DNA of 64,000 nucleotides from Candidatus Bathyarchaeota archaeon (GCA_021161255.1 JAGHAZ010000056.1:862-64861); one strand, 5' to 3'; positions 3 through 59,254 are shown, counted from the stretch's first letter. Notes: a model not told the origin generated them from the letters alone. Made by a program: numbers and translations.

Positions 3-410
3 GAAGACCTGGACGAGGAATGCCGTAGATACGAGGAGGCTATAAAGAGGGCTGGGGGTATAGACCTTCAGCTTCTAGGCATAGGAAGGAACGGCCACAT
101 AGGTTTCAACGAGCCCGGCTCCCCCTTCGACTCTAGGACAAGGGTGGTTAAGCTCAGCGAGCAGACGAGGAAGGACAACGCCAGGTTCTTCAACTCGATA
201 GACGAGGTGCCGACCCATGCGATAACGATGGGTATAGGCACGATAATGGAGGCTAGACGCATAATCCTCATAGCCAGCGGAGAGGCTAAAGCCGAAGCCA
301 TAGCCAAGGCGGTTAAAGGACCCAAGACCGTGGACGTGCCGGCTTCTGTTCTTCAAGACCATCCAGACTGCCTGTTCATAGTGGACAAGGAAGCCGCCTC
401 GCTTCTCTAG
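3..410 (+). CDS. nagB: glucosamine-6-phosphate deaminase/isomerase, 5'-truncated by the window edge
   Basis: The frame is open from position 3. Translation contains [15 protein letters not shown] and [26 protein letters not shown], which are typical NagB/SOL-family motifs. Stop at 408-410. Confidence 0.75.
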
Positions 411-9555: not shown

Positions 9556-12500
9556 ATGTTCCAAAAGTATAATAACCTTTTCTTTCTCAATAGGTGTACG
9601 GTGTCTGAAACGGGTCGAGTCGTGAATCTGGAAAAAGCAGCTCTATTAGCATTCATCGTGATCCTAGCTTTACCGGTTATCGTATATGCGCAGGCACCGC
9701 AGCCGATAAGCGGTGCATCGGTCGTCGCGTTTGGTGACGCAGGGTACGGGGTAGCTGAGACAGACGCCGAAGGATTCTTCGAGATAACGGAGGGGTTGGG
9801 TGAAGGCGTCTACGACGTGAGGATAAGCGCCAAGGGCTACGTTTCCAAGGTGGTCGAAGACGTCGAAGTCGTAGCCGGGGAGGAGGTGGACATAGGCGAC
9901 GTATTCCTCAAACCATCTGCGGTGATAAAGGGTGTGGTGGAGACGCCTGACGGCGAGCCGGCTGCTAACGTCCCCGTGGCCCTAAAAGACAGTAGCGGCA
10001 AAGTACTTCAGCTAACCACCACGTCGAGCGACGGCTCCTTTGTCTTCGACACCGACGTGAGGAACGGGACCTACACGGTGGAGGCTTACGCGTTCATGTT
10101 CGAGGGGATGGAGTATCAAACGGTGACGATGGGCTTCACCCAGGTGGAGATCCCCGTTCCCAAGCCAGGCGCCTCCTACTTACAAGGTTACACCTCTGGG
10201 AGGGTCAAGAACGTCGAAGCGGTTCAAGGCGAGACGGTCGAGGACATAGTGATACGTCTCGACGTATCCGGTATAATATCCGGTAGGGTTACAGACGACC
10301 AGGGTAACCCCGTAGCCGATGTGCTAGTGGTAGCCTTCTCACCCAGCGGTGGTATATCCAAGGGGTTCTACGCCGTGACAGACGAGGACGGGCGGTATAG
10401 GATAGCCAACAACCTCGACACGGGCGACTATAACGTGACCCTGCTGTTCCCGAAGGGTTATGTATGGAACTTCATGAACGCTAAGAAGGTTCACGTCGTA
10501 GCAGGTGAGGAGACGGCTAACGTAGACTTCCAGCTTGAAAGGTCCGGCATAATATCCGGCGTAGTCGTATACAGCGACGATACCCCTGCCGCGAACGCGA
10601 CTGTCGTAGCGTTCTCGCAGGACGGCAAGTACTTCGGCTTTACCACCTCCGACATAGATGGGTCCTTCAGGATAGACTCAGGTCTCGGAACGGCTACCTA
10701 CCAGGTTATGGCGTTCGTAGGGACGACAGCTTTCTCCCAGCCCGTGACTGTTCAGGTAACAGCTGGCGAGGAGACCAAGGACGTTAAGCTCGTCGTGACC
10801 GGGACGGCTAAGGGAATGGCCGCCATAGAGGGCACCGTTACAGATATCGACGGTAACCCGCTCGTAGACGTCGAGGTGTCGGCTCTAGATGCGGTGACGT
10901 ACACAGACGAAGATGGAAGCTATAGACTCATCATAGCTCTTCCACAAGGCGTTACCTCCACCACCGTAACAGTAACCGCGTCTAAGAGAGGCTACGAGAC
11001 AGCCGTTAAAGAGGGGGTCACTGTGACGGCCGGGGAGACGACAAAGCCGGTGGACTTCACGTTGGAGAAGCTTAAGCTCGGCGTCATAAAGGGCCGTGTC
11101 CTCGCTAAGGCGCCTCCGCCGTCGGCTAAGAAGACGGCTTCTCTCTCGATATCGCTATCCTCGCAAATCGTGAGCATAGGAGAGTCTGTGACTATATCTG
11201 GAACCATAACTCCGAGCCTCACCGGAGAGGTCTCGATACTGGTGGCTTCAGATACTGTTTTCGAGGAGATCGCTAAGGTAAACCTCGAAGACGGAAGCTT
11301 CAGCTACAGCTTCACGCCGACCGCTAAGGGAGTCTATAGGATAAAAGTTTCATGGCCTGGGAACGACGAGTATAACCCGGCCGAATCCGAGATTCTAACC
11401 CTGACGGTGGTCAAGAAGACGGCCGAGCTTTCGATATCACTGTCCTCCTCGACCATAACGATAGGGGACTCCGTCACTCTTGAAGGTACGATAACACCCT
11501 CTGTGACGGGTAAAGTATTCATCCTTCTGACCCCGGACGGTAAATTTAAGAAGATAGCTGAGGTCGACTTGGAAAACGGCAGGTTCAACTTCACTCTGAA
11601 GCCTGAGGCCCTCGGCACCTACAGGGTTAAGGTTGTGTGGCCTGGAAACGCCGAGTATAAGCCCGTGGAATCCGATGTGTTAACTCTGACCGTGAAGAAG
11701 GTATCCCCGACGGTCGAGATATCGGTCTCTAAGACAACGGCTAACGTGGGTGAAACCGTCACCATATCAGGCTCGATATCTCCGTTTAAAGCTGAGACGG
11801 ATGTCGTGATAACCGTCACAAGCCCGTCGGGTGTCAGCGAGTACACGGTCACCTCGTCAGACGGTAGCTTCGAGTATGGCATAGAGCTTGACGCTCAAGG
11901 AACGTGGAGCGTCAAGGCTGAGGTTCCTGAAGGACCGGTCTATGAGTCGGCTGAGTCCAACGATGTCCAGATAACGGTTCAGGAGAAGAAGTGTATAATA
12001 GCTACCGTGACCTTCGGCTCTGAGGTCGCTCCGGAGGTCAACTTTCTAAGGTCCTTCAGAGACGGCTTGATCCTCACGACGTACGCCGGTAGACAGTTCT
12101 ACGTAGCCTTCGACGCCTTCTACTACTCGTGGAGCACACCTGTGGCGAAGTTCATAGAGTCCAACCCTGTATTGAAACCGGTCGTCAAAGCTTTACTGTA
12201 TCCGTTACTCGGAATATTGAAGTTCACGGCCTTAGCTAGTATGCCGCTCTTTGGACTGAACCCCGAGACCGCGGCCGTGTTAGCGGGTTTCATAGCATCC
12301 TCGCTCATAGGCGTCGTCTATGTCTCACCGGTTCTAATAGCCGTCTCGCTTCTGGCTAGGAAATACGGTAGAACGGTCAAGCCATCCATAGAGTTCGTGA
12401 AGGCCCTATGGGCTTCGGTAGCCGCCTCCCTAGTATTCATAGGTATAGGATTAGTCTTAGAAAGCGGTCTACTGTTGACGGCTGCGACCTCAGCTTACGT

Positions 12501-12570
12501 GTTATCCACCATAGCCTCGTCGTCGACCTCCATACTATACCTGGCGACTACGAAAGCTAAGGAAAAATAG
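9556..12570 (+). CDS. large secreted cell-surface protein with CarboxypepD_reg-like beta-sandwich repeats, three tandem Ig-like repeats and a C-terminal multi-TM anchor
   Basis: A signal-peptide-like segment (LLAFIVILALPVIVYAQA) follows a probable internal GTG start near 9622. The (I/V)SGxVxDxxGNPVAxAxV modules recur about six times. Three roughly 95-aa repeats (SISLSS...TITPSxTG...WPGNxEYxP) follow, then a Cys-containing hydrophobic C-terminus with several TM helices. Confidence 0.7.
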   Translation: MFQKYNNLFFLNRCTVSETGRVVNLEKAALLAFIVILALPVIVYAQAPQPISGASVVAFGDAGYGVAETDAEGFFEITEGLGEGVYDVRISAKGYVSKVVEDVEVVAGEEVDIGDVFLKPSAVIKGVVETPDGEPAANVPVALKDSSGKVLQLTTTSSDGSFVFDTDVRNGTYTVEAYAFMFEGMEYQTVTMGFTQVEIPVPKPGASYLQGYTSGRVKNVEAVQGETVEDIVIRLDVSGIISGRVTDDQGNPVADVLVVAFSPSGGISKGFYAVTDEDGRYRIANNLDTGDYNVTLLFPKGYVWNFMNAKKVHVVAGEETANVDFQLERSGIISGVVVYSDDTPAANATVVAFSQDGKYFGFTTSDIDGSFRIDSGLGTATYQVMAFVGTTAFSQPVTVQVTAGEETKDVKLVVTGTAKGMAAIEGTVTDIDGNPLVDVEVSALDAVTYTDEDGSYRLIIALPQGVTSTTVTVTASKRGYETAVKEGVTVTAGETTKPVDFTLEKLKLGVIKGRVLAKAPPPSAKKTASLSISLSSQIVSIGESVTISGTITPSLTGEVSILVASDTVFEEIAKVNLEDGSFSYSFTPTAKGVYRIKVSWPGNDEYNPAESEILTLTVVKKTAELSISLSSSTITIGDSVTLEGTITPSVTGKVFILLTPDGKFKKIAEVDLENGRFNFTLKPEALGTYRVKVVWPGNAEYKPVESDVLTLTVKKVSPTVEISVSKTTANVGETVTISGSISPFKAETDVVITVTSPSGVSEYTVTSSDGSFEYGIELDAQGTWSVKAEVPEGPVYESAESNDVQITVQEKKCIIATVTFGSEVAPEVNFLRSFRDGLILTTYAGRQFYVAFDAFYYSWSTPVAKFIESNPVLKPVVKALLYPLLGILKFTALASMPLFGLNPETAAVLAGFIASSLIGVVYVSPVLIAVSLLARKYGRTVKPSIEFVKALWASVAASLVFIGIGLVLESGLLLTAATSAYVLSTIASSSTSILYLATTKAKEK
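11128..11990 (+). repeat. three tandem ~285-nt intragenic repeats encoding Ig-like domains
   Basis: The repeat units begin KKTASLSISLSS..., KKTAELSISLSS... and KKVSPTVEISVS.... They are approximately 50% identical at the protein level and lie back to back. Confidence 0.7.
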
Positions 12571-30666: not shown

Positions 30667-32043
30667 CTACGGTAAGACTTTACCTGGATTTAGTATACCG
30701 TTGGGGTCGAATAGCCGTTTGATCTCCCTCATGAGTGCTATATGGATTTGGCTCATGTACTTCGCGGCGCTACCTATCCTAACGGCTCCTATACCGTGCT
30801 CACCTGTTATCGTCCCACCCAACCTGACGGCCACATCGTATATCTCCTGTCTGACCCTATCATAGTCCTCCATGCTCCACCCCTCCTCCTTCATTATGTG
30901 GACGTGTATGTTTCCGTCACCAGCGTGGCCGTAGGCCGGTAGATAGGTTCCGTAACGCTCGGCTATACGCTCCACCTCATCCATGAAAGCCCCTATGGAG
31001 GCCGGTGGAACCGTTGCGTCTAGGATATCCACCATATCCGGCTTAAGCGCCGTATAGATCTCGCTACGGATTTTAAGGATCCTATCCTGCTCCTCCCTGC
31101 TTTCGGCCAGCAACGGTTCGAGAGAGCCTAAATCCTCGCAAAGGGACAGAATCCTCTCGCACTGGGCGTAGAGGGAATCCTCAGACGGTTCGGCTAGAAC
31201 GAGTATAAGAAAGCTTTCTCCGACTTTACACGGCCACTCCAGGCCCAAGTGTTGCGCAGACCTCTCTATAGGAGCCTTCTCGACATATTCGAGAGCCAGC
31301 GGTAGTATGCCTGCCTGGAGGATCCTCGGAACCGCTTTCACGGCGGTACTTCGCTTTTCGAACGGTATTATCAAGGTCGCCATAGCCGGAAGCCTCGGAT
31401 AAAGCCTTATCCAAGCCTTCGTTATGACGGCTAACGTCCCCTCACTCCCGATAATAAGCTGCATCAGGTCGTAGCCTAGGTTATCCTTCATAAGCTTCCC
31501 TCCGAGCCTCAAGACCTCACCCGTCGCCAAGACAGCCTCCAACCCCCTTACGTAGTTCCTGATAACCCCCGTCTTAACAGCCCTAGCTCCACCCGCGTTA
31601 CATGCTATGAGACCACCTATCTGAGCCCCCTCATCTCCTGGATGGGGTGGAAAGAAGAGTCCAGCCTCTTCCGAAGCCTTTATCAGGTCTCCTAGAGTTG
31701 CGCCAGCCTCAGCCTCAGCCATAAGGTTCTCCCGGTCGACCGTTATCTTGTTCATCCTCTCCAGGGATAAGACTATACCGTTACGGGTGGGTATGCATCC
31801 TCCCACGAGACCGGTTCCTCCCCCTCTGGGAAACACGGGTATCCTATGTTCATTCGCATACCTTAAGACCTCTGAGACCTCCTCCACCGAACCTGGTTTG
31901 ACGACGACCACGTCTTTGGATGGAACTGGCCTTATAGGCGGAGGCGTCTCATCTAAGAGATACCCGGCCACTAGGTCTCTACCGTAGATAACCCAGTCAT
32001 ACCCGACGATCTCCCTAAGCTTACCAACAGTTTCTTCATTCAT
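30667..32043 (-). CDS. FAD-linked oxidase (GlcD / D-lactate dehydrogenase family)
   Basis: N-terminal FAD-binding PCMH domain (VVKPGSVEEVSEVLRYANEHRIPVFPRGGGTGLVGG) and a C-terminal FAD-oxidase_C domain. Confidence 0.8.
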   Translation of the reverse strand: MNEETVGKLREIVGYDWVIYGRDLVAGYLLDETPPPIRPVPSKDVVVVKPGSVEEVSEVLRYANEHRIPVFPRGGGTGLVGGCIPTRNGIVLSLERMNKITVDRENLMAEAEAGATLGDLIKASEEAGLFFPPHPGDEGAQIGGLIACNAGGARAVKTGVIRNYVRGLEAVLATGEVLRLGGKLMKDNLGYDLMQLIIGSEGTLAVITKAWIRLYPRLPAMATLIIPFEKRSTAVKAVPRILQAGILPLALEYVEKAPIERSAQHLGLEWPCKVGESFLILVLAEPSEDSLYAQCERILSLCEDLGSLEPLLAESREEQDRILKIRSEIYTALKPDMVDILDATVPPASIGAFMDEVERIAERYGTYLPAYGHAGDGNIHVHIMKEEGWSMEDYDRVRQEIYDVAVRLGGTITGEHGIGAVRIGSAAKYMSQIHIALMREIKRLFDPNGILNPGKVLP

Positions 32044-33040
32044 CCGCTAATCCTCCTTTAATCCTCTTCAATGCCTCGATAAGTTTTGGCACGACCTCGT
32101 ATAAATCCCCTACTACTCCATAGTCCGCGACCCTGAATATGGGGGCCGAGGGGTCTATGTTTATAGCTACTATCACGTCAGACCCCCTCATACCCGCTAA
32201 GTGCTGAGGTGAGCCTGAGATACCGCAGGCCACGTAGAGCCTAGGCTTCACCGTGTTACCGCTGAAACCCACTTGGTAATCCTTAGATATCCATCCCTCA
32301 TCCACCAGAGGTCTACTCACCCCTAGGACACCGCCTAACAATGATGCAAGCTCCTCGAGCATCTTCAAGTCTTCCTTACGCTTTAATCCCCTACCCCCGG
32401 CGACGATCACGTCTGCGTCTGCGAGGTTCACCCTTCTAGCGGAGACCTTACCTAGAAACCTCAACCCGGTCTCCGGGACTTTGCTAAGCTTTTTCTCCAC
32501 GATCACACCCTTTCTCGAAGTGTCTCTCTGGAGCGCTTTCATGACCCTATATCTGACGGTGGCCATGACGGGCCTGCTTCTCGTCTTGATATGTGCTAGT
32601 ATGTTGCCTGTGAAGGCCGGTCTTATCTGGACGAGTTCCCCATCCTTGTCGACCTGAAGGTCTATACAGTCCGCCGTAAGCCCCGTATTCAAAGCCGCGG
32701 CCACTCTGGGGGCTAGGCTTCTACCGAGTGGAGTAGCACCGACTAGGAAAACCGACGGTTCGATCTCCTCGGCCAACTCCACGAGCACATGCTTATATCT
32801 GACGACGTCGAACACCTCAAGCGACGGATGGTCGTATAGGAATACCCTATCGGCTCCGTAGTATATGAGCTCCTTAGCCTGCTCCTTGACGCGATGTCCT
32901 AGAAGTACGCTCCAAAGCTCCACCCCTAGTCCATCGGCTATCTCCCTGCCCTTCCCTAAAAGCTCGAACGAAACCGGGTGTATGACTCTGTTCTCATGCT
33001 CGGCGTATACAAGCACTCCTCCCTTAGCCGGCTGGCTCAA
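32036..33040 (-). CDS. etfA: electron transfer flavoprotein alpha subunit (EtfA/FixB)
   Basis: C-terminal FAD-binding region IVAGGRG...LGGVLGVSRPLVDEGW. Overlaps etfB by 4 nt. Confidence 0.8.
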   Translation of the reverse strand: MSQPAKGGVLVYAEHENRVIHPVSFELLGKGREIADGLGVELWSVLLGHRVKEQAKELIYYGADRVFLYDHPSLEVFDVVRYKHVLVELAEEIEPSVFLVGATPLGRSLAPRVAAALNTGLTADCIDLQVDKDGELVQIRPAFTGNILAHIKTRSRPVMATVRYRVMKALQRDTSRKGVIVEKKLSKVPETGLRFLGKVSARRVNLADADVIVAGGRGLKRKEDLKMLEELASLLGGVLGVSRPLVDEGWISKDYQVGFSGNTVKPRLYVACGISGSPQHLAGMRGSDVIVAINIDPSAPIFRVADYGVVGDLYEVVPKLIEALKRIKGGLADE

Positions 33041-33813
33041 CGTACGAACCCCTCCCTACGTAAAGCATCTATAAGCCTCTCGACGGCGTCTTCACCCCTG
33101 AATATGAGACCCTTCCTCTCCTCCTCCGAGGGTATAGTTATCCTAGTGACCAGCGTCATCGAGCCTTGAAGCCCAAACCTACAAGCCTCACCGTACTCTG
33201 CCAAACTATCGGCATTCCAAACCTCCACCTTAGCTCTCCTAGCTTTGAGCACGTCCCGGAGGGTCGGTAGACGAGGGGTATTTATATCCTTAGTTACCGT
33301 TATCAGCGCCGGGAGCCTAGCCTCGAAGAGATATTTATCACCCATATCCGAGACCACGAGAATCTTATCGTCTGAGACCTCCCTGACCTCGCATACATAG
33401 GCCACGTGGGGGATCCCAAGGTGCTCGGCTACCTCTGGGCCCACCTGACCTGTATCTCCGTCGACGGTTTTCTCACCGCACACTATGAGGTCGAACGAGC
33501 CGAGCTTCCTTATGGCGGTCGCCAGGGTGTAGGAGGTGGCTAAGGTGTCGGCTCCGGCGAACCGTTTATCGGTTAAGAGTATAGTCCTATCGGCTCCTCT
33601 AGCTAGGGCATCTCTCAGGCTCGACTCTGCTTGAGGCGGTCCCATGCTTATGACGGTTACTCGACCGCCTAACTTCTCTTTAAGCCGGACGGCCGTTTCC
33701 AACGCGTTCAGGTCAAACGGGTTTGTCTCGGCAGGTGCTGAGCTCCGGTCGACTCTACCCGTCTCTACGTCGAATCTAACCTTCTGGATATCTGGAACCT
33801 GTTTGATGAGCAC
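33037..33813 (-). CDS. etfB: electron transfer flavoprotein beta subunit (EtfB/FixA)
   Basis: MLIKQVPD...NPFDLNALE...VISMGP, typical EtfB. Confidence 0.8.
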   Translation of the reverse strand: MLIKQVPDIQKVRFDVETGRVDRSSAPAETNPFDLNALETAVRLKEKLGGRVTVISMGPPQAESSLRDALARGADRTILLTDKRFAGADTLATSYTLATAIRKLGSFDLIVCGEKTVDGDTGQVGPEVAEHLGIPHVAYVCEVREVSDDKILVVSDMGDKYLFEARLPALITVTKDINTPRLPTLRDVLKARRAKVEVWNADSLAEYGEACRFGLQGSMTLVTRITIPSEEERKGLIFRGEDAVERLIDALRREGFVR

Positions 33814-33947: not shown

Positions 33948-35279
33948 TTGCCAGGTTTATGGGTTCCAAGCTTAGACGAATTCAGGAGCTTACTTAAACT
34001 CGAACTTACCCAGATGTATGAGGAAGGCTTCGACGTAGGAGAGTTCTTGGAAAACCCGGGAGTCATCGACGAGATGAGGTTGAACGAGCTAAACGAGCTT
34101 TACCAGAAGCTTAAACATGCTCCGGTTAAGAGAGGCTATCCCTACACCGAACCTTCAGACCTAGACGGCATAAGAGATCTGAGACCCAGAGGACCTAGGG
34201 GGCTCGAGCTAGGCTATCCCAGGGAGAGGCTTGAAGACCGTATAGTCGGGGCTTGGTTCGGCAGGTGCATCGGCTGTCTTATAGGTAAACCCGTCGAAGG
34301 CTTCGACAGAGACCTGATAGAGAGGTATCTTAAATCGGCTGGCGAGTATCCTCCGAGAGGATATCTACCGGCTTTAGATAAGGCGGTCGAAGGGTTGCCA
34401 AGTGATTTCTCAGAAAGCAGGAGAGGAATGCTGAGGGGGAGTATAGAGTGTATGCCTAGAGACGACGATATAGACTACGCGATCCTTAACCTGCACGTGC
34501 TAGAGACCCACGGCTTCGATTTCACGACGGAGGACGTCGGGGTTGAATGGCTCAGCCATCTACCGTATAAAGCCACCTACACAGCCGAGAGAGCGGCGTA
34601 TAGAAACCTTGTCCTAGGTCTAAAGCCTCCTGAAACAGCCGTCTACATGAACCCATACCGGGAGTGGATAGGCGCCCAGATCAGGGCTGACCTTTGGGGT
34701 TACGTCGCACCTGGTCTTATCGAGTATGCGGCCGATATGGCTTATAGAGACGCAACGCTAAGTCATGTGAAAAACGGTGTATACGGAGAAATGTTTATAG
34801 CGGCTACTGTTTCAGCAGCCTTCGCGGTGAACGGTGTCGAAGAGGCCTTAAGGATAGGATTGACGGAGATTCCGAGGTCTTCGAGATTCGCCGAGGTTGT
34901 GGAAAACGTTATGAAATGGTCCAAAGTCGACGGATGTTGGGTTGACACATGGAAGCGGGTTATGAACACTTATGGTAGATACCATAGGGTTCACGTGCTA
35001 AACAACGCTGCTATAGTCGTCTTATCGCTGATGCATGGTGAGGAAGACTTCGTGAAATCGGTCGGCATATCTGTCATGTGCGGCTTAGACACCGACTGCA
35101 ATTGTGCAACGGTCGGCTCGATACTAGGGGCTTTAAAGGGGTTGAAGAGCATACCCGATAGGCTTGTTAAGCCTCTGAACGATAGGGTTAGAAGCATGGT
35201 CGCTGGCTTCGACGGTTCAAGCATAACCGAGCTAGCCCGCAGGACCCTAAAATTGGCCATTAAAAAGTTGAGTACATAA
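33948..35279 (+). CDS. ADP-ribosylglycohydrolase family protein (DraG/ARH-like)
   Basis: RIVGAWFGRCIGCLIGKPVEG and GLDTDCNCATVGSILGA metal-binding motifs of the ARH family. Confidence 0.7.
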   Translation: MPGLWVPSLDEFRSLLKLELTQMYEEGFDVGEFLENPGVIDEMRLNELNELYQKLKHAPVKRGYPYTEPSDLDGIRDLRPRGPRGLELGYPRERLEDRIVGAWFGRCIGCLIGKPVEGFDRDLIERYLKSAGEYPPRGYLPALDKAVEGLPSDFSESRRGMLRGSIECMPRDDDIDYAILNLHVLETHGFDFTTEDVGVEWLSHLPYKATYTAERAAYRNLVLGLKPPETAVYMNPYREWIGAQIRADLWGYVAPGLIEYAADMAYRDATLSHVKNGVYGEMFIAATVSAAFAVNGVEEALRIGLTEIPRSSRFAEVVENVMKWSKVDGCWVDTWKRVMNTYGRYHRVHVLNNAAIVVLSLMHGEEDFVKSVGISVMCGLDTDCNCATVGSILGALKGLKSIPDRLVKPLNDRVRSMVAGFDGSSITELARRTLKLAIKKLST

Positions 35280-50749: not shown

Positions 50750-52636
50750 TCATCCACAGGATTTCTGAAACGTATTCACGGCATCGTTTAACGCTCCGAT
50801 TATCGATGGAAGGTTTTCCTTGATAAAGTAGACTGCTATGGGGCATTTCTCCAGGCATACCCCGCATCTGGTACATAACTCTTGGTCTACATAAACCGTT
50901 TCTCCATCCCACCTAACGGCGTCTTTAACACACCAAAATACACAGGAGAGACATCCGGTGCATAAGATTGCCCTGGCTACGGTTCCTAAGACTTTATACA
51001 ACAGCTTAAACCCTGGATAAGTGAGGTTTTCGACTGTTATCAACCCATCCCAGCGTATTATGACCCGTGCATCTCCGTCTCGGTGTTCAATCATCCCATT
51101 GCCCACCTCGTTTACACCGCCGATCGTCGGAGCTAGTTTGAGAACTCTCTCTATGTCTATATGCTTGTTCAACCTAAGTCTCATAGAGACCTTTCCATCG
51201 TCCACCTGAGCGTCTTCTACATAAGCCTTCAAAGCCATCCTCTTATCAGCCTCAGCCTTTGCACCCACGACTCTTTCGACCCTCTTAGGCGTCCTACGCC
51301 ACCTCCAAAGAGCCAGCTTCACGTAGTCTTCGCTGTATCCCATTCCACTAGCCCATCTCCTAAGCCAGCTTTCCCAACGGCTCCAAAGCTCAGGGTGAAG
51401 ACGCTTTACCTCTTGGAACTCGGCTAGGTTACAGTATGGACATGTATAGCACCCTATCCTATCGAATCCTTCGAAGTATAGAGGATTAACCAGAGCTTCG
51501 AGCTTCTCCATCCACAGATACAGCCACACATGGAGCATACTCCAACTACCTATAGGAGTCATATTCATGCTACCGGTTATCCAGTAGTTCTCCCACACAT
51601 TCCCCCTCTTCCTCCTAGCCCTCGACTCGGCGGCTCTCTGCCCCACGACGGTTAGAACCCTACCGCTGAGGAAATTCTTGTACAACCTGAGCGTAGGTAT
51701 AAGCTTGCAGGTTTTGCAACACCATCTATAACCCCTCGCAGGTGGACCATAAGACTCCAACCCCTTCCAGAAAGCCTCGCCTGCTTGAGCTTCCAAAACC
51801 TCTATCCCGAGCTTTGATGAAACCTTCTGAACGTTCGAAACGGTTTCAGGAAGCTCTATCCCGGTGTCTGTGAACAAGAGCATCGGCTCTAAACCGGCTT
51901 TGAGGGTCAAGCTTAAGACGGCTAAGCTATCCTTTCCTCCCGAGTATGAGACGACCAGTTCTCCTCCGAATCTACTGTAGATCCTATATACGGTTTTAGC
52001 GGCTCTCGAAGCCTCAGCCCGTATAGCGTTCTCGTTAGCTCTCAAAACGTCATCTATAGACGCGCCTCTCCTCACGGGTTCGACCTTAGATATGGGCTTC
52101 CAGACGTTCAATACCTTCAAACCATCCCTTGTCTGCTCCGCGATCCCTAAGGCCTCCCCGTAACTATCCGTTAACGCGACATATCCACGGTCGACTTTCT
52201 TCAACCGTAGAACCTGGCCTTTAACAGGCTTCTGGTCGACCTTCACGCTTTCTATCATTCCATCCTCCAAAAGCCTCATACATCCCATCCTTAGGGGTTT
52301 AAATCGCCATTCGAGTAGAAGCATATCGTAGAATAAGTGACCGAGTAATAGACCGTCTCCGACTACCTCATACCCGGCGTCCGCGTAAGGAACCCTGTTG
52401 AGGAGTATAATTCCGTCGCCTATAACCCGCTTAAACGCCTGGGCTCCAAACTCTTTTTCGACAGCATCCCTAAGGGTTTCTATATCGGCCTCTAAGGCCG
52501 GTCTAGGGTCCTGAGGCCTAAATAGCTTAACCTCTGCCCCTTCACGTCCACATGTACCGCATCTCTCCTCTATAAGAGGAACGTTGCAGGTCAAGCACCA
52601 GTAGACCAATGCCTCAACCTGAAACCGGCTAGACAT
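50750..52636 (-). CDS. PAPS-reductase-like PP-loop ATP pyrophosphatase fused to an N-terminal Zn ribbon and a C-terminal 2x[4Fe-4S] ferredoxin domain
   Basis: CLTCN...CGTCG N-terminal ribbon, SYSGGKDS PP-loop, and CTGCLSC...CTRCGVCLEKCP C-terminus. 628 aa. Confidence 0.65.
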   Translation of the reverse strand: MSSRFQVEALVYWCLTCNVPLIEERCGTCGREGAEVKLFRPQDPRPALEADIETLRDAVEKEFGAQAFKRVIGDGIILLNRVPYADAGYEVVGDGLLLGHLFYDMLLLEWRFKPLRMGCMRLLEDGMIESVKVDQKPVKGQVLRLKKVDRGYVALTDSYGEALGIAEQTRDGLKVLNVWKPISKVEPVRRGASIDDVLRANENAIRAEASRAAKTVYRIYSRFGGELVVSYSGGKDSLAVLSLTLKAGLEPMLLFTDTGIELPETVSNVQKVSSKLGIEVLEAQAGEAFWKGLESYGPPARGYRWCCKTCKLIPTLRLYKNFLSGRVLTVVGQRAAESRARRKRGNVWENYWITGSMNMTPIGSWSMLHVWLYLWMEKLEALVNPLYFEGFDRIGCYTCPYCNLAEFQEVKRLHPELWSRWESWLRRWASGMGYSEDYVKLALWRWRRTPKRVERVVGAKAEADKRMALKAYVEDAQVDDGKVSMRLRLNKHIDIERVLKLAPTIGGVNEVGNGMIEHRDGDARVIIRWDGLITVENLTYPGFKLLYKVLGTVARAILCTGCLSCVFWCVKDAVRWDGETVYVDQELCTRCGVCLEKCPIAVYFIKENLPSIIGALNDAVNTFQKSCG

Positions 52637-52784
52637 CGATTTAAGGTTTCATCCGGGATATTCGACTTGACAAGGGAGTATAGGCCCAACGTTCTCATAA
52701 CGCATTGGAGAGGGAGTACAAGTACGCCAAACCTTGATATGTCTCTGGTCAGAGGAGGATCAGGGTTCGATGGCTTCCGGAGGG

Positions 52785-53945
52785 CTAGTAGAGGAAATAC
52801 TTTCTCCTGAGTTTCTCGAAGGAACTTATGTCCTCGCATAGCTTTGCCAGCTCTTCAAATCCTCGGTTCTCCATTATCAACCTACGAGGCTTATCTGAGC
52901 CCACGAGGAGGTCGAAGTAGTACCTGCCGTCGCTCTTCGTAAACCGGAAGCTCTCGGCGAAAAGACGTCTGATAACCCAGATAACCGCCATACCAAACTT
53001 AACAGGCTTAAACTCATCTCTGTCGGTGACGTATATCTGAAACCCATGGCAAAGCTCACCTTCATACTTACCAAACCTAGGGGTAAACGCTGAAGGACGT
53101 AGCCTGAAGCCTCTAAGGGGGAGGGATTCAAGCTCCTCGATAACCCTATATTCGTCGACCCAGGGTGCGCCTACGACCTCGAAGGGTTTGGCGGTGCCCC
53201 TACCCTCAGAGACGTTGGTTCCCTCGAGGAGGCAGGTGCCTGGGTAGACCGTGGCCGTGCTCAGGGATGGCATGTTCGGCGAGGGGGGAACCCAGGGTAG
53301 ACCCGTCTCGTCGAACCACATTCCACGTCTCCAGCCATTCATCTTCAAGACCTCGACGCAGGCTCTAAGCTCAGCCTCCTCGTTGAACAGGTTCGCAAGC
53401 TCTCCAGCGGTTAAGCCGTACCTGACCGGGACCGTCCATATGCCTACGAAAGACCTGAAGCTCGGCTCCAGCATAGGTCCTTCAACGTGAACGCCGGTGA
53501 CCGGGTTCGGTCTATCCAAGACGAGGACCCTAACACCTACCTTCCCCGCCGATTTCAGGACGTGGAAGAGGGTCGAAATATAGGTGTAGAACCTAACCCC
53601 TACGTCCTGTATATCGTAGATGATGAGGTCGAGCTTCTCCAAGACCTTCCTCGGCGGCTCGAGGCGGGGGCCGTAGAGGCTGTAGATGGGAATTCCGGTT
53701 TTCACGTCGACGGAGTTCTTCACGGAAGCCCCGTCTGCTACGCTCCCCCTGAACCCATGCTCTGGGCTGAAGATCGCTTTGACGTCTAGTCCGAAGCGCT
53801 TGTAGAGGAGGTCGACTACGTGCCTGAAATCCGCCGTGACACCGGTGTGGTTCGTGACGACCCCTATACGCTTACCGGCTACGCGTTGGAACCCCTCTTC
53901 TACCAGAAGCTGAAGCCCGGTTTTAACCCTGGGTTTGAAAACCAC
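52785..53945 (-). CDS. DUF1343-family protein (NamZ-like exo-beta-N-acetylmuramidase homolog)
   Basis: RIGVVTNHTG...IFSPEHGFRG...IIYDIQDVGVRFYTYISTL...VLDRPNP are DUF1343 signature blocks. Confidence 0.6.
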   Translation of the reverse strand: MVFKPRVKTGLQLLVEEGFQRVAGKRIGVVTNHTGVTADFRHVVDLLYKRFGLDVKAIFSPEHGFRGSVADGASVKNSVDVKTGIPIYSLYGPRLEPPRKVLEKLDLIIYDIQDVGVRFYTYISTLFHVLKSAGKVGVRVLVLDRPNPVTGVHVEGPMLEPSFRSFVGIWTVPVRYGLTAGELANLFNEEAELRACVEVLKMNGWRRGMWFDETGLPWVPPSPNMPSLSTATVYPGTCLLEGTNVSEGRGTAKPFEVVGAPWVDEYRVIEELESLPLRGFRLRPSAFTPRFGKYEGELCHGFQIYVTDRDEFKPVKFGMAVIWVIRRLFAESFRFTKSDGRYYFDLLVGSDKPRRLIMENRGFEELAKLCEDISSFEKLRRKYFLY

Positions 53946-53985
53946 GAAGAAATATTAGCTGGAACACCCTTTATGATTTTAGTTA

Positions 53986-54972
53986 ATGACCGAGGAGTAC
54001 TTCTGCGGAGTCGACGGTGGCGGGAGTAAAACCCTATGCGTCTTAGCGGATGGAGATGGACGTGTGCTGGGTTTAGGTAGGTCGGGCTCGTCTAACATAT
54101 CCGTAGTCGGTGTAGACGCTGCATGTAGAAACATCAAAGAGGCCTTTGAAAAAGCAACGGCAAGCTCCGTCGGGAAAGTCGACTATATGGCTTTGGCCAT
54201 CGCTGGGATGGGTAGTAGGCTTAGAAGAGACATATTGAAGCGGGAGGTCGAGGCTATGGGTCTATCGAGAGCCGTTTTTATAGAAAGCGACGCAGCCGCC
54301 GCCTTGATGGCCACCACCCTAGGTAAACCGGGTGTCGTAGTCGTCTCAGGCACCGGTTCCATAGTTTTGGCGCTGGATTCTGAGGGCCGCTTTCATAGGG
54401 CGCTTGGGTGGGGATACCTGCTAGACGACGAGGGAAGCGGCTTCTACATCGGCAGAGAAGCCTTGAGGCGGGCTCTCTCAGCCTATGACGGAAGGGGAAC
54501 GGCTACCGTTTTAACGGAGCAGATACCTAGGTATTTCGGCGTAGGCTCTCTAGCAGACGTAGTCGACCTCGTCTCGCTTAGGAGGATCGGTGTGAGGGAG
54601 ATAGCGGATTTAGCGCCCTTGGTCGTTAAACTCGCGAAGGCCGGGGATAGGGTGGCTTGCGACATACTGCGGCAAGCGTGTCTTGAGCTCTTAAACGCCA
54701 CCTTAGCGGTTATCGATAAGGCTGGTTTAAAAGACGGAGCCTCTATCGGTGTGTGCGGAGGGGTCTTCGAGAACTGCGTCGAGTTCGTCGAAGAATTCTC
54801 ATCCTTCTTAAGGGAGAAAGCTCCGTCGGCTAGGGTCGTTAGACCCTTGTTTAAACCCGTCGTAGGGGCGCTGCTTATGGCTTATAGATATGCCGGAAAG
54901 GAGCTGGATGACGGGTTGATGAGAAACCTCTTGGAGACGTCTTCTAGGTTTGGTTTGAGGTGGCGGTTATGA
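53986..54972 (+). CDS. BadF/BadG/BcrA/BcrD-type ATPase-fold sugar kinase (GlcNAc/MurNAc kinase-like, MurK/NagK type)
   Basis: FCGVDGGGSKT is the phosphate-1 motif of the ASKHA fold, with BadF-type spacing of later motifs. Confidence 0.65.
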   Translation: MTEEYFCGVDGGGSKTLCVLADGDGRVLGLGRSGSSNISVVGVDAACRNIKEAFEKATASSVGKVDYMALAIAGMGSRLRRDILKREVEAMGLSRAVFIESDAAAALMATTLGKPGVVVVSGTGSIVLALDSEGRFHRALGWGYLLDDEGSGFYIGREALRRALSAYDGRGTATVLTEQIPRYFGVGSLADVVDLVSLRRIGVREIADLAPLVVKLAKAGDRVACDILRQACLELLNATLAVIDKAGLKDGASIGVCGGVFENCVEFVEEFSSFLREKAPSARVVRPLFKPVVGALLMAYRYAGKELDDGLMRNLLETSSRFGLRWRL

Positions 54973-55913
54973 ATAGAATCGAGGACTTGGAGAAGCTCAT
55001 ATCCGAGCAGAGGAACGTGAAAACCGTAGACATAGATAGGCTTAGCATGGAGGAGATACTCAGGGTTATAAACGAGGAGGATAAGAAGGTCGCCTACGCG
55101 GTCGAGAGGGAGATACCGAACATAGCTAAGGCCGCTCACGCCTACCTACGCAGTCTTAAAAACGGGGGTAGGGTCTTCTACGTAGGAGCCGGGACGAGCG
55201 GCCGGATGGGTGTGATAGATAGGGCCGAGCTCATATCGACGTTCAAGATGGACCCAAAGGCCATTATACCGATACTCGCCGGCGGGGTTAAAGCCATGTA
55301 TGGCCCCTCTGAGATGGCTGAGGATAAGGAGGAGAACGGTAGGAGAGTTATCTCGAAGTATAGGGTCGATGAGAGGGATTCTGTGATCGGGATATCGGCT
55401 AGCGGACGTACACCCTACGTCGTGGGGGCTTTGAAAGAGGCTAAGCGCAGGGGAGCCACTACGATAGCTATCACAGTAAACCCAGACGCCGAGATATCCC
55501 GCTACGCGGACATAGTCATCTGCCCGCTCGTAGGTCCTGAGGTCATAGCAGGGTCTACCCGCATGAAGGCGGGTACGGCTCAGAAGATGATACTGACCAT
55601 GCTCAGCACAGCCGTCATGGTCAAGCTCGGGAGGGTCTACAGCAACCTTATGGTGAGCCTTCTTCCGATAAGCTCGAAGCTACGTGAAAGGGCGAGGCGT
55701 ATAGTGATGACCGAGGCCGGTGTCGACTACGAAACAGCCGCTAAGACCCTGGAAGAGACGGGATACGATATTAAGGCCGCGATAATCATGCTTAAGGCCA
55801 AGGTCGACTACGGGAAAGCCCTAAAGGCCCTTAGAGAGGCGGAGGGAAACCTAGAGAAGGCTTTAAACCTAGCCCTAAACAGCTCCTCGTCCTCTAAGCC
55901 TAGGCGGGGCTAG
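54960..55913 (+). CDS. murQ: N-acetylmuramic acid 6-phosphate etherase (MurQ-like SIS protein)
   Basis: VGAGTSGRMGVIDRAEL and SASGRTPYV SIS motifs. About 300 aa with a MurQ-like C-terminal UBA-like tail. Confidence 0.65.
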   Translation: MAVMNRIEDLEKLISEQRNVKTVDIDRLSMEEILRVINEEDKKVAYAVEREIPNIAKAAHAYLRSLKNGGRVFYVGAGTSGRMGVIDRAELISTFKMDPKAIIPILAGGVKAMYGPSEMAEDKEENGRRVISKYRVDERDSVIGISASGRTPYVVGALKEAKRRGATTIAITVNPDAEISRYADIVICPLVGPEVIAGSTRMKAGTAQKMILTMLSTAVMVKLGRVYSNLMVSLLPISSKLRERARRIVMTEAGVDYETAAKTLEETGYDIKAAIIMLKAKVDYGKALKALREAEGNLEKALNLALNSSSSSKPRRG

Positions 55914-55978: not shown

Positions 55979-57262
55979 ATGGGTCAGGCGTCTATGCGGG
56001 TTAAGATGTCTGGGTTCAAGGGGCTTATGAAGGTGGAAGATGCCCTAGCTAGGCTTCTTGAAGCCATCAGGGGTTATAGGCTCGACGTCGAGGAGGTTCC
56101 CGTGGAGGAGGAGGCTGTCGGTAGGGTTTGCGCCGAGGATTTGAAGGCGCCGGTGGACGTGCCTCCGTTCGACAGGTCCGCGGTAGACGGGTACGCCGTC
56201 AGATACCTCGACGTCTTAAGCGCGTCTGAGAGCAGCCCGGTCGAGCTTAGGATAGTAGGCGTCTCCAAGACCGGGTCGAGACCGGATACGCTACCTGAGG
56301 TTAAGCCGGGAGAAGCCGTCGAAATATATACGGGAGCCCCCTTGCCTAGGGGTGCAGACTCGGTCGTGATGGTCGAGTACACGAAGAGGGAGGAGGATAG
56401 GCTATGGGTCTACAGGCCCGTGGCCTACATGCAGAACGTCTCCAAGAGAGGTGAAGACTTCTCGGCCGGAGAACCGGTCGTCTCCGTAGGGGTTAAGCTT
56501 AAGCCCTGGCACGTCGGGGCTTTGGCGTCCCTAGGTGTAACGTCCGTGAAGGTCTACCGTAGGCCTACCGTCGCCGTAGCCTCGACCGGCTCCGAGCTTA
56601 AGCCCCTAGGCTCCAAGATATCCCCAGGTGAGGTCGTAGACTCGACCAGGCCGATGATCAAGGCGTTTTTGAGGAACCTAGGCTGCGACGTGTTGGACCT
56701 AGGGATACTCGAGGACGACCCGGCGGTCATCTCGGAAGCCGTTTCGAAGGGCTTGAAAACCTCAGACCTCATGGTTCTCACAGGCGGAACGAGCCTAGGT
56801 TTGAAAGACGCTACACCGGATGGCTTAAGCATGGTCGAGGGTTCTAGACTGATCTTCCACGGCGTCCGTATGAGACCTGGGAAGCCCACGGGAGCCTACC
56901 TGGTAAACGGTAAACCGGTGTTCATGCTCTCAGGTTTCCCAGTCGCCGCTTTCGTAGGGTTCATGGTCTTCGTGGAGCCGGCTATACGTGGTATGATGAA
57001 GTGTAGACCAGACCCGCAGCCCGTAGTGAAGGCTCAGGTCGCGAGGAGAGTGGCTAAGCCTCCCGGCGTCAGAGCCTACGTCAGGGTGAGGGTCTACTCG
57101 AGAGACGGTGTTCTATACGCCGAGCCGCTTAGGCTCACGGGTTCGGGGATAATCTCGACCCTGACGAGGGGGAACGGCTTATTGATCCTCAGAGAGGAGG
57201 CTGAAGGGGTCGAGGAGGGGGAGGAGGTCGAGGTTCTACTCACCCAGCCGGTGGAGGTGTAG
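55979..57262 (+). CDS. moeA: molybdopterin molybdenumtransferase MoeA
   Basis: PFDRSAVDGYA, GAPLPRGADSVVMVEYT, and a GGTSLGxKD MogA-like domain. Confidence 0.8.
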   Translation: MGQASMRVKMSGFKGLMKVEDALARLLEAIRGYRLDVEEVPVEEEAVGRVCAEDLKAPVDVPPFDRSAVDGYAVRYLDVLSASESSPVELRIVGVSKTGSRPDTLPEVKPGEAVEIYTGAPLPRGADSVVMVEYTKREEDRLWVYRPVAYMQNVSKRGEDFSAGEPVVSVGVKLKPWHVGALASLGVTSVKVYRRPTVAVASTGSELKPLGSKISPGEVVDSTRPMIKAFLRNLGCDVLDLGILEDDPAVISEAVSKGLKTSDLMVLTGGTSLGLKDATPDGLSMVEGSRLIFHGVRMRPGKPTGAYLVNGKPVFMLSGFPVAAFVGFMVFVEPAIRGMMKCRPDPQPVVKAQVARRVAKPPGVRAYVRVRVYSRDGVLYAEPLRLTGSGIISTLTRGNGLLILREEAEGVEEGEEVEVLLTQPVEV

Positions 57263-57268
57263 AGGCGG

Positions 57269-59254
57269 ATGGCTAAGGTCTTCCATAGGCTCATGAAGGT
57301 CGAGGAGGCGATAGAGCTCGTCAAAAAGCACCTTAAACCCCTAGAGTTAGATGTCGAATACGTGTCTCTCACCGACGCTCTAGGGAGGGTGTTGGCCGAG
57401 TCTATAACCGCGCCGATAGACTCTCCGCCTTTCGACAGGTCTAGGGTCGACGGGTACGCCGTCTACAGCGGAAGCCTCGCAGACGTCGATGAGGAGCATC
57501 CCGCGAGGCTTAAGCTGGTAGGTGTGGTCGAGACGGGGGAGTTGCCGAGGCTTGAGGTTAAGCCTGGGGAGGCTGCGGAGATACGTACTGGAGCCCCCTT
57601 GCCTAGGGGTGCAGACTCGGTCGTGATGGTCGAGTACACGAGAAGCCTTGACGGCGAGGTTCTAGTCTACAGGCCGACCTACCCGGGTGAGAACATATCC
57701 CAGGCCGGTACCGACGTAATGGTCGGGGAAGTCGTACTCAGGAGGAACACGGTTCTAACCCCTAGGGAGATAGGTGTGTTAGCGGCTTTAGGCTTGGATA
57801 AGGTGCCGGTTTACAGACGACTTAGGGTCGCCGTCGTCTCGACCGGTGTCGAGGTTCAGCCCCCGGGTAAGCCTCTAGAGCCGGGTAAGATATACGACGT
57901 CAACAGCTACACGATCTCCTGTATGGCTAGGGAGCTCGGATGCGAGCCCCGTATACTCGGAACATACCCAGACGACTTCGAGCTTCTCAGGAAGGTCATC
58001 GGCGAGGCGGTCGAGGAATACGACGTCGTCCTATCCTCCGGAAGCACGTCGGCCGGCTTCGGAGACATAATCTACAGGGTTTTCGACAGCCTAGGCGAGC
58101 CGGGGGTGTTGGTTCACGGTCTCCTCATGAGACCTGGAAAACCCACGGTCGCGGCGGTCGTCGGAGGTAAGCTTCTGGTGGGGCTTCCAGGGTTCCCGGT
58201 CTCGGCGATGATGGCCTTCCACGTGTTCGTCAAACCCCTCATATCGCATCTTACAGGCGTCCCGGTCGAGGAGGAGGCGAGGGTCTTAGCCGAGCTGCCG
58301 CTCAGGGTTCAGGCCGGCGGCGGTAGGAGGGTTCTGATACCGGTGAGCCTCGTATCGAACCCCTCTGGAGGTTTATCGGCCTACCCCATCTCAGGGGATT
58401 CAGGCGCCATCTCTAGACTCGCCCTTGCAGACGGGTTTATAGAATGCCCAGAGGACAGGGAGTTTCTGGACGAGGGTGAGAGGGTTTACGTGACGTTGTT
58501 CTCCAAGGCCGTTGAACCGGCGGACCTAGCTGTGATCGGAAGCCACTGCCCGGGCTTAGACCTCCTCCTAGAGCTTCTCGGGAGAACTCTGAGGGTTAAG
58601 ACTGTTAACGTCGGCTCTCTAGGAGGATTTCTAGCCGTCAGGAGGGGGGAGGCCGACGTGGCGGGTACGCACCTGCTAGACCCGGAGACTATGCGGTATA
58701 ATATTCCTTTTATATCTAAATATGGGCTAGAGGGGCGGGTTGTCCTGGTCAGGGGATACGCTAGGATGCAGGGCTTCATCGTCAGGAAGGGGAACCCTAA
58801 GCGCATCAGGGGGTTCGAGGACCTGTTCAGGGAGGACGTGATCATGGTTAACCGTAACAGGGGCTCCGGGACCAGAGTCTTGATCGACCTGGGGTTGAGG
58901 AAGGCGGCTGAGAGGATTGGGCTAGACTTCGACGACGCTGTTAAAAGGATCAGGGGGTACGGTTTGGAGGCTAGGACCCACTCGGCGGTCGCGGCGGCCG
59001 TGGCCCAGGGTAGGTGCGACGTAGGCGTGGGCGTGGAGGCTATCGCCCACATATACGGGCTGGACTTCATACCGATAGCCGAGGAGGTATACGACTTCCT
59101 GATACCGAGGGATAGGCTCAGTAAACCTTCCGTCAAACTATTCATCAAGGCCTTGAGGTCTGAGGGGTTTAAGCAGATGCTTAGGGATAGGCTTAAGGGG
59201 TATAGGGCTCTCGAAGAGACAGGAGCCGTCATATATGGCGGGAGTAACCTTTAA
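57269..59254 (+). CDS. moeA: MoeA paralog with a C-terminal PBP-like (solute-binding-like) domain
   Basis: MoeA core (PFDRSRVDGYA, GAPLPRGADSVVMVEYT) plus a ~250-aa PBP-like extension. Confidence 0.8.
   Translation: MAKVFHRLMKVEEAIELVKKHLKPLELDVEYVSLTDALGRVLAESITAPIDSPPFDRSRVDGYAVYSGSLADVDEEHPARLKLVGVVETGELPRLEVKPGEAAEIRTGAPLPRGADSVVMVEYTRSLDGEVLVYRPTYPGENISQAGTDVMVGEVVLRRNTVLTPREIGVLAALGLDKVPVYRRLRVAVVSTGVEVQPPGKPLEPGKIYDVNSYTISCMARELGCEPRILGTYPDDFELLRKVIGEAVEEYDVVLSSGSTSAGFGDIIYRVFDSLGEPGVLVHGLLMRPGKPTVAAVVGGKLLVGLPGFPVSAMMAFHVFVKPLISHLTGVPVEEEARVLAELPLRVQAGGGRRVLIPVSLVSNPSGGLSAYPISGDSGAISRLALADGFIECPEDREFLDEGERVYVTLFSKAVEPADLAVIGSHCPGLDLLLELLGRTLRVKTVNVGSLGGFLAVRRGEADVAGTHLLDPETMRYNIPFISKYGLEGRVVLVRGYARMQGFIVRKGNPKRIRGFEDLFREDVIMVNRNRGSGTRVLIDLGLRKAAERIGLDFDDAVKRIRGYGLEARTHSAVAAAVAQGRCDVGVGVEAIAHIYGLDFIPIAEEVYDFLIPRDRLSKPSVKLFIKALRSEGFKQMLRDRLKGYRALEETGAVIYGGSNL

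Follow-up and report, generated by a model that had tools for sequence, protein, structure and literature searches.

Analysis of a 64,000-nucleotide stretch of DNA assigned to Candidatus Bathyarchaeota archaeon (GCA_021161255.1, JAGHAZ010000056.1:862-64861; this whole stretch is referred to here as the window) revealed a cluster of three adjacent genes encoding relatives of the exo-muramidase NamZ, of BadF-type sugar kinases and of MurQ, the N-acetylmuramic acid (MurNAc) 6-phosphate etherase. The cluster is considered here as a candidate route for MurNAc catabolism in an archaeon. The open reading frames (ORFs) given for it in a preliminary description of this DNA, at 52785-53945 on the minus strand and at 53986-54972 and 54960-55913 on the plus strand, were all recovered. 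With the start of murQ revised as explained below, the features are as follows.

52785..53945, minus strand: namZ homologue, an ORF of 386 amino acids (aa), GH171/DUF1343 exo-beta-N-acetylmuramidase family
53946..53985: divergent intergenic spacer of 40 bp between the starts of namZ and the kinase gene
53986..54972, plus strand: BadF/ASKHA-type sugar kinase, candidate 6-kinase for MurNAc and N-acetylglucosamine (GlcNAc), an ORF of 328 aa
54969..55913, plus strand: murQ, MurNAc-6-phosphate etherase family, 314 aa from the ATG
52719..52807, plus strand: relic of the 3' end of a PIG-L deacetylase gene, convergent with namZ and overlapping its end
3..410, plus strand, frame +3: fragment of nagB, glucosamine-6-phosphate deaminase, the C-terminal 135 codons, with the 5' part beyond the window edge

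Gene models and host

The two plus-strand genes had been described as overlapping by 13 nt, which requires murQ to begin at a GTG at 54960. The most likely start is instead the ATG at 54969, which gives a 4-nt overlap (ATGA) with the kinase stop codon. This ATG is the start used in gene calls on independent metagenome assemblies, and it yields an N-terminus that agrees with those of solved bacterial MurQ proteins in a comparison with PDB entries. The protein read from the GTG has no exact database match, the recorded protein being the form that starts at the ATG. The ATGA overlap indicates that murQ is translationally coupled to the kinase gene. In the spacer between the divergent genes there are two A/T-rich, TATA-like elements (AAATATTA, 53950-53957, and TTTATGATTTTA, 53970-53981), and each precedes one of the start codons by about 25-36 nt. 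They might represent back-to-back archaeal promoters giving near-leaderless transcripts.

The contig is unquestionably archaeal, because genes for exosome subunits, both proteasome subunits, SBDS, RNase P p30, TFE-alpha, the thermosome and aCPSF1 are found in the same window. The G+C content of the cluster (0.53-0.54) is not an outlier relative to the window average of about 0.52. An assignment of the host to the Thermoproteales, as first suggested, is unsupported: the NCBI label is that of an uncultured metagenome-assembled genome (MAG), Candidatus Bathyarchaeota archaeon. Proteins of the window are identical or nearly identical to entries of Candidatus Bathyarchaeota archaeon MAGs (locus tag J7L70) and of archaeon B24 from the Guaymas Basin, and the host is a close relative of archaeon B24, uncultured and from hydrothermal sediment. 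Related MAGs have been labelled Thermoprotei or Thermoproteales by some submitters. In the automatic annotation of GenBank the archaeal MurQ and some NamZ proteins are named as such, and the kinase is "hypothetical".

The NamZ and MurQ homologues

Both Pfam domains of the NamZ family are matched, NamZ_N with an E-value of 5e-83 (277.8 bits against a gathering score of 26.9) and NamZ_C with an E-value of 5e-50 (170.7 bits against 25), and PDB entries 4k05 (7e-78) and 4jja (7e-61) are matched, so that the DUF1343/NamZ assignment of the preliminary description is upheld. In NamZ of Bacillus subtilis, Glu92 and Arg279 are the proposed active-site residues (PMC8054146). They correspond to Glu62 (in the motif PEHG) and Arg249 (in GRGT) of the window protein, a mapping that rests on a constant offset of 30 and on the motifs rather than on an alignment to the B. 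subtilis sequence. Glu62 is kept in all 122 homologues compared and Arg249 in 121 of them, the exception being an uncharacterised Bacteroides paralogue (4K05). No signal peptide or N-terminal extension is present in the window protein, and more than 25 extra residues are found in only five of the 122 close homologues. Because it has no such extension, the window NamZ is predicted to be cytoplasmic, whereas the B. subtilis enzyme is secreted (PMC8054146). The paper on the NamZ family presents it as bacterial and does not mention archaea (PMC8054146).

In an NCBIfam profile search the MurQ homologue passes the TIGR00274 equivalog model (329 bits against a cutoff of 302) as well as PRK05441 (386 against 168) and PRK12570 (365 against 255). 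It also has several SIS matches in Pfam, and PDB entries 4s12, 4lzj and 1nri are matched at E-values of about 1e-70. The alignment with Escherichia coli MurQ is ungapped, at 42% identity, and places Glu87 and Glu118 at the positions of Glu83 and Glu114, which we take from the mechanistic literature to be the two catalytic acids of the E. coli enzyme. Both are invariant in an alignment of 197 archaeal and bacterial MurQ homologues, and all residues invariant in the family are kept in the window protein. The match is therefore not a generic SIS or RpiR-like one lacking the active site, and the MurQ identification of the preliminary description stands together with its catalytic glutamates. One peculiarity lies at the catalytic Glu itself: at residues 87-91 the archaeal MurQ clade has E-L-[IL]-[SP]-T instead of the near-universal bacterial E-C-P-P-T. 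A Leu after the catalytic Glu is also found in 6 of 85 bacterial MurQ sequences. MurQ is linked in these archaea to known or candidate producers of MurNAc 6-phosphate (MurNAc-6-P), namely to the BadF-type kinase, a candidate, whose gene overlaps the start of murQ, and to AnmK in two sister clusters (L091 and L095; comparison loci are designated by L numbers).

The sugar kinase

The kinase is the weakest of the three assignments. It matches PF01869 (BcrAD_BadFG) with an E-value of 1e-40, and NagK_SO3507, its only NCBIfam match, scores 113.7 bits, far under the cutoff of 370. Its best relative of solved structure is the Sulfolobus tokodaii hexokinase (PDB 2e2n, 135.6 bits), followed by a Clostridium-type MurNAc/GlcNAc kinase (8zo3, 123.6 bits). 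Asp102 aligns with the catalytic Asp of both, within the BadF/ASKHA fold. The kinase had been described as of the MurK/NagK kind; this is right at the level of the BadF family, and the narrower name MurK is not secured, given that the hexokinase narrowly outscores the Clostridium MurK.

The paper on the structure of Tannerella MurK (TfMurK) names positions that decide whether the lactyl ether fits. Tolerance goes with a small residue before the catalytic Asp, a non-acidic residue at the position of Ile69 and the absence of bulky Glu or His at 133-135, with the caution that MurNAc binding is not callable from sequence alone. At these positions the window kinase has Ser101 before Asp102, Gly76 at the Ile69 position and a GWG motif, all of them permissive, and the Ser and Gly are found in 13 of the 14 closest kinase relatives. 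In contrast, S. tokodaii hexokinase (2E2N), which has the fold and catalytic Asp in common with the window protein, has His before the Asp and Asp at the Ile69 position, and these two residues are said to keep MurNAc out of that enzyme. The window gene also differs from that of the hexokinase in being joined operon-like to murQ.

Rearrangement and selection at the locus

The window is collinear with two Guaymas Basin contigs (L083 and L084) from position 52719 rightward, at about 96% identity, and unrelated to them leftward. This synteny breakpoint lies 66 nt beyond the stop codon of namZ (compare 7748-7820 of L083). To its left the window has PAPS-reductase-like (PAPS, 3'-phosphoadenosine 5'-phosphosulfate) and POR genes in the place where the sister contigs have PIG-L, GNAT and PBP4B-like genes. 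What is left of the PIG-L gene is a relic of 26 codons, 65% identical to the C-terminus of the L083 PIG-L protein, and an intact PIG-L gene lies at the same position in L083, L084, L086 and L087. A search of the rest of the window for PIG-L, GNAT and PF00144 genes found only this relic. Since the more distant relatives L086-L089 have the extended arrangement, the extended island is ancestral and its left arm has been lost or moved in the lineage of the window. L001 and L002, which come from independent samples, have the shortened arrangement too, at 99.5% identity.

In comparison with L083, dN/dS is 0.12 for namZ, 0.14 for the kinase gene and 0.00 for murQ, and 0.08-0.10 for the adjacent moeA genes, which indicates that the three genes are under purifying selection. 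MurQ is the most conserved of the three, with 100% protein identity to L083 at a dS of 0.04.

In L088 and L089 (2335-6964), which come from two independent assemblies of another archaeal lineage, the NamZ, PF00144 hydrolase and PIG-L genes are each split into two ORFs, and the kinase and MurQ genes are intact. The split ORFs could reflect pseudogenisation of part of the island.

Distribution and phylogeny

MurQ has many archaeal relatives, at 53-89% identity, and six different archaeal gene contexts were found, so that the cluster extends well beyond one strain. They are the following.

Window, L001 and L002: NamZ / kinase-MurQ
L083 and L084 (Guaymas B24-type), L086 and L087, L088 and L089: PF00144 hydrolase, GNAT, PIG-L deacetylase, NamZ / kinase-MurQ
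L091 (843-kb contig): MurQ-NamZ, GH3, PF00144, AnmK
L093: NamZ-PF00144 and kinase-MurQ
L095: major facilitator superfamily (MFS) transporter-kinase-MurQ-NamZ, GH3, S9 peptidase, AnmK
L092 (Thermofilum MAG): Opp/Dpp-type ATP-binding cassette (ABC) transporter adjoining MurQ

The locus has been assembled independently in at least five metagenome contigs. The overlapping kinase-murQ pair is also found in L086, L093 and L095, and in the bacterial loci L036 (Sporomusa) and L066 (a Thermotogae MAG). Of the accessory proteins in the sister loci, AnmK of L091 and L095 scores 481-491 bits against an equivalog cutoff of 387, and the GH3 protein passes the NagZ model with 221-226 bits against 207. The PF00144 protein is closest to PBP4B/YfeW, with 36% identity to E. 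coli YfeW, and adjoins the cluster in L083, L086, L091 and L093; it is absent from the window. Parts of the archaeal island are also assembled in bacteria: the Clostridia loci L021 and L031 (Anaerocolumna) carry AnmK, a GNAT-like gene, PIG-L (45% identical), GH3, the kinase and NamZ, and in Acidobacteria PF00144 homologues adjoin murQ, some of them fused to GH3. Three acidobacterial loci (L018 2773-5712, L019 6952-9891 and L046 6780-9875) have ORFs of about 1000 aa, directly upstream of murQ, that match both GH3 (NagZ-like) and PBP4B-like PF00144 queries and appear to be NagZ-PF00144 fusions.

In a tree of MurQ built by neighbour joining on corrected p-distances, without support values and with 85 labelled bacterial sequences, 15 of the 16 archaeal-labelled sequences, that of the window included, fall in one clade of 89 that holds no labelled bacteria and in which most members carry no taxonomic label. 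For NamZ and the kinase, as for MurQ, archaeal relatives rank before bacterial ones. When species-representative genomes were scanned with MurQ, the matches listed were from bacteria only, at 52% identity or less. A recent transfer confined to a single strain was considered and is ruled out by the unremarkable G+C content, the archaeal MurQ clade and the dN/dS values. The best reading is that archaea of the Thermoproteota/Bathyarchaeia type obtained the module from bacteria long ago and have since kept it, with rearrangements.

NamZ is also encoded in the closed genome of Caldivirga maquilingensis (CP000852.1; L094 9240-11158), a cultured archaeon of the Thermoproteales. The protein encoded before it there is not MurQ but a SIS protein of 247 aa that belongs to the uncharacterised PRK02947 family (293 bits), and nearby are genes for a heparinase II/III-like protein, for PGM/PMM and for ABC ATPases of the Opp type. 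This locus may belong to a different or non-orthologous pathway.

Proposed pathway

We consider it probable, at roughly 0.7, that the cluster is the core of a cytoplasmic pathway for the catabolism of MurNAc scavenged from bacterial peptidoglycan, in an archaeon expected to be without murein. In the pathway that we infer, soluble MurNAc-saccharides free of peptide, e.g. MurNAc-GlcNAc, would be imported by a transporter encoded outside the window. Candidates adjoin the cluster in relatives, namely the MFS protein of L095 and the Opp/Dpp-type ABC transporter of L092. Cytoplasmic NamZ would hydrolyse terminal non-reducing beta-1,4-linked MurNAc, and the BadF-type kinase would phosphorylate MurNAc, and probably GlcNAc too, at O6 with ATP. 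MurQ would then split off the D-lactyl ether in an elimination-hydration reaction, with Glu87 and Glu118 as the catalytic residues, to give GlcNAc 6-phosphate (GlcNAc-6-P) and D-lactate. A deacetylase followed by NagB would convert GlcNAc-6-P to fructose 6-phosphate and ammonia, the former entering glycolysis. In the sister genomes the deacetylase would be the product of the adjacent PIG-L gene that has been lost at the window locus.

The source of the substrate is suggested by the company that the genes keep in sister archaeal loci. AnmK is specific for 1,6-anhydro-MurNAc, which lytic transglycosylases release from murein, and its recurrence in these loci speaks for bacterial peptidoglycan fragments as the substrate class rather than another ether sugar. 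Together with NagZ and the PBP4B/YfeW-type hydrolase it lends support to the scavenging of bacterial wall debris proposed in the preliminary description, and makes the alternative offered there, that another 3-O-lactyl or ether sugar is degraded, less likely.

That description also had the pathway running from MurNAc into glycolysis with the help of NagB at the start of the window. The three family assignments hold, as does that of NagB, which scores 183 bits with TIGR00502 and 213 bits with PRK00443.1-4 over the 135 residues present. The route is, however, incomplete in the window, where there is no transporter and no GlcNAc-6-P deacetylase, PIG-L being a relic only, and the NagB gene is a 5'-truncated fragment about 52 kb from the cluster. 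Treatment of NagB and the cluster as one unit is ruled out by this distance and by the unrelated housekeeping genes between them. Neither the phosphotransferase system (PTS) transporter MurP nor an RpiR-type MurR regulator was found among the annotated ORFs of the window, which are most but not all of its ORFs.

A gene at 30667-33813 on the minus strand, directly downstream of the genes for EtfB and EtfA (electron transfer flavoprotein), encodes a GlcD-like FAD-linked oxidase (314 bits, under the glcD cutoff of 568). Electron-bifurcating lactate or glycolate dehydrogenase complexes typically show such an arrangement of GlcD-like and EtfBA proteins. The oxidase could act on the D-lactate released by MurQ, as a candidate only, encoded 20 kb away.

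Several points weigh against the proposed pathway. The absence of murein is an expectation, and a window of 64 kb cannot show that genes for murein synthesis are absent. With the left arm of the island lost, the window holds no transporter, NagA or PIG-L deacetylase, amidase or NagZ. A cytoplasmic NamZ is unlike the secreted B. subtilis enzyme, which makes any imported substrate, such as MurNAc-GlcNAc, a presumptive one. MurNAc may not be the substrate of every archaeal NamZ homologue, because that of Caldivirga stands beside a different SIS protein and not MurQ. The best solved relative of the kinase is a hexokinase of broad specificity, and at the "diagnostic" positions even the Clostridium MurNAc/GlcNAc kinase (8zo3) carries Asn-Asp and Asp. 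The residues of the window kinase are therefore compatible with MurNAc phosphorylation, with specificity not readable from sequence. The MurQ tree, finally, is limited by its method and sampling as given above.

Comparison with known MurNAc pathways

The muropeptide rescue operon of B. subtilis has the order murQ-murR-murP-amiE-nagZ-namZ(ybbC) (PMC8054146). NamZ (GH171) and MurQ are common to this operon and the window, with the equivalents of Glu92 and Arg279 kept in NamZ. Counterparts of NagZ, and a PF00144 hydrolase of the class-C beta-lactamase fold, occur in sister archaeal loci, although not in the window. The archaeal locus differs in being without MurP and MurR, so that MurNAc-6-P must come from an ATP-dependent kinase and not from PTS uptake. 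AmiE/YbbE of B. subtilis is presumably a member of the same PF00144 family.

In E. coli, yfeW directly follows murQ-murP. In comparison with this murQ-murP-yfeW and AnmK route, the sister-locus PF00144 protein and the MurQ protein are similar to their E. coli counterparts to the extent given above, whereas the window is without yfeW, anmK and murP, with AnmK present in archaeal L091 and L095. To our knowledge E. coli has neither NamZ nor a MurK-type kinase. An ATP-dependent BadF-type kinase feeding MurQ is what the window has in common with the MurK-MurQ pathways of Clostridium acetobutylicum and Tannerella forsythia, and the window kinase is 27-38% identical to the bacterial kinases of comparison loci L021, L031, L036 and L066. 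T. forsythia is a MurNAc auxotroph in which the pathway is partly one of anabolic salvage, a role that would be meaningless in an archaeon.

The nearest conceptual parallel is found in anaerobic ciliates, bacterivorous and without murein, which have laterally acquired pbp4b, NamZ, anmK, nagB-PIGL and murQ from prokaryotes, a gene set read as serving the digestion of bacterial walls (PMC13198582). In both cases the same set of genes has been gained by a host that is, or should be, without murein. The ciliates are, however, phagotrophic eukaryotes, whereas the archaeon must import soluble fragments, and its genes are clustered, coupled and in an archaeal clade of their own.

The chemistry is thus that of the known bacterial MurNAc route, from which the archaeal case differs in its host, in the lack of PTS and MurR and in a cytoplasmic NamZ; it is ecologically interesting and not mechanistically new. 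A literature search on archaeal MurQ, NamZ and AnmK, on MurNAc use and on Bathyarchaeota with muramic acid found no paper on archaeal MurNAc catabolism.

Alternative explanations

The enzymes could have been repurposed for a non-murein substrate, i.e. an endogenous archaeal or environmental glycan containing a 3-O-lactyl or other ether hexosamine, in turnover of the cell's own envelope or of another polymer. The distinct E-L-[IL]-[SP]-T motif of the archaeal MurQ clade, the cytoplasmic location predicted for NamZ in contrast to the characterised enzyme, and the linkage of Caldivirga NamZ to a PRK02947-type SIS protein and a heparinase II/III-like gene instead of MurQ can all be read in this way. 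We nevertheless consider it unlikely, as all family-invariant MurQ residues are kept, Leu follows the catalytic Glu in some bacterial MurQ proteins too, and the AnmK, NagZ and PBP4B-like proteins of sister clusters have murein turnover products as their known substrates. We know of no archaeal lactyl-ether sugar, which also counts against this reading. Because of the same motif and the cytoplasmic NamZ, a self-recycling role could fit, in which the MurQ/NamZ/kinase clade recycles an endogenous, undescribed muramic-acid-like lactyl-ether sugar in the envelope or glycans of Thermoproteota/Bathyarchaeia; this is highly unlikely.

A general amino-sugar cluster, directed at GlcNAc, chitin or N-glycans, would have a broad hexose/GlcNAc kinase, a NamZ acting as another kind of exo-hexosaminidase and a minor part for MurQ. 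The kinase offers this reading some encouragement, its nearest solved relative being the S. tokodaii hexokinase and its only NCBIfam match a sub-threshold NagK, and so do NagB in the window and PIG-L in the sister loci, PIG-L deacetylases being typical of archaeal GlcNAc and chitobiose pathways. A minor part for MurQ is hard to reconcile with a protein that passes the equivalog model, is the most conserved of the three and is encoded in translational coupling with the kinase. As exo-muramidase is the sole GH171 activity described in the cited NamZ literature, and AnmK co-occurs in relatives, this explanation is improbable.

It is very unlikely that the three genes are a decaying remnant, i.e. 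functionless passengers after the loss of PIG-L, GNAT and the PBP4B-like gene. The breakpoint and the PIG-L relic at 52719-52807 show that the island has suffered losses, and the split NamZ, PF00144 and PIG-L ORFs of L088 and L089 suggest that decay is possible. The three ORFs of the window are, however, intact with their catalytic residues in place, their dN/dS values of 0-0.14 resemble those of neighbouring housekeeping genes, and the shortened arrangement is maintained in the independent samples L001 and L002.

That bacterial DNA was joined to an archaeal contig by an error of assembly or binning is barely credible. MurQ, NamZ and the kinase ultimately derive from bacteria, and the best matches listed in species-representative genomes are bacterial (52% identity or less), but both junctions recur in assemblies made independently in different projects (L001, L002, L083, L084 and L085), the G+C content is not anomalous, archaeal housekeeping genes lie on the same contig, and NamZ is present in the closed C. 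maquilingensis genome.

Other genes of the window

The cluster is flanked on one side by a PAPS-reductase-like gene and POR subunit genes and on the other by two moeA genes. The former, at 50750-52636 on the minus strand, lies directly past the breakpoint, adjoins 2-oxoacid:ferredoxin oxidoreductase subunit genes and encodes a 628-aa PAPS-reductase-family protein with Cys-rich (4Fe-4S-like) extensions at both the N- and C-terminus. The two MoeA paralogues are in tandem directly 3' of murQ (55979-57262 and 57269-59254, plus strand), and the second has a fused domain that resembles periplasmic binding proteins (PBP_like / SBP_bac_11). The two genes have short stretches of 88 nt in common, which are about 87% identical between them.

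Further from the cluster, the gene at 9556-12570 (plus strand) encodes a 1004-aa protein with five CarboxypepD_reg repeats and several bacterial Ig-like domains, probably a large protein of the cell surface or associated with the S-layer. In L091 a related protein with multiple Big domains is encoded beside the AnmK cluster. The gene at 33948-35279 (plus strand), divergent from the Etf operon, encodes a 443-aa protein of the ADP-ribosylglycohydrolase family.

Significance

Sediments contain a large amount of carbon and nitrogen in the form of peptidoglycan, which is relatively recalcitrant, and Bathyarchaeia-type archaea, which are uncultured, are among the most abundant microbes there. If the proposed pathway is correct, it would provide a testable route by which archaea use bacterial necromass or the turnover products of living neighbours. 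A complete catabolic module would, moreover, have passed between domains long ago, in parallel to what is seen in the bacterivorous ciliates. All three are small soluble proteins with clear candidate substrates, and they may serve as thermostable tools for peptidoglycan analysis.

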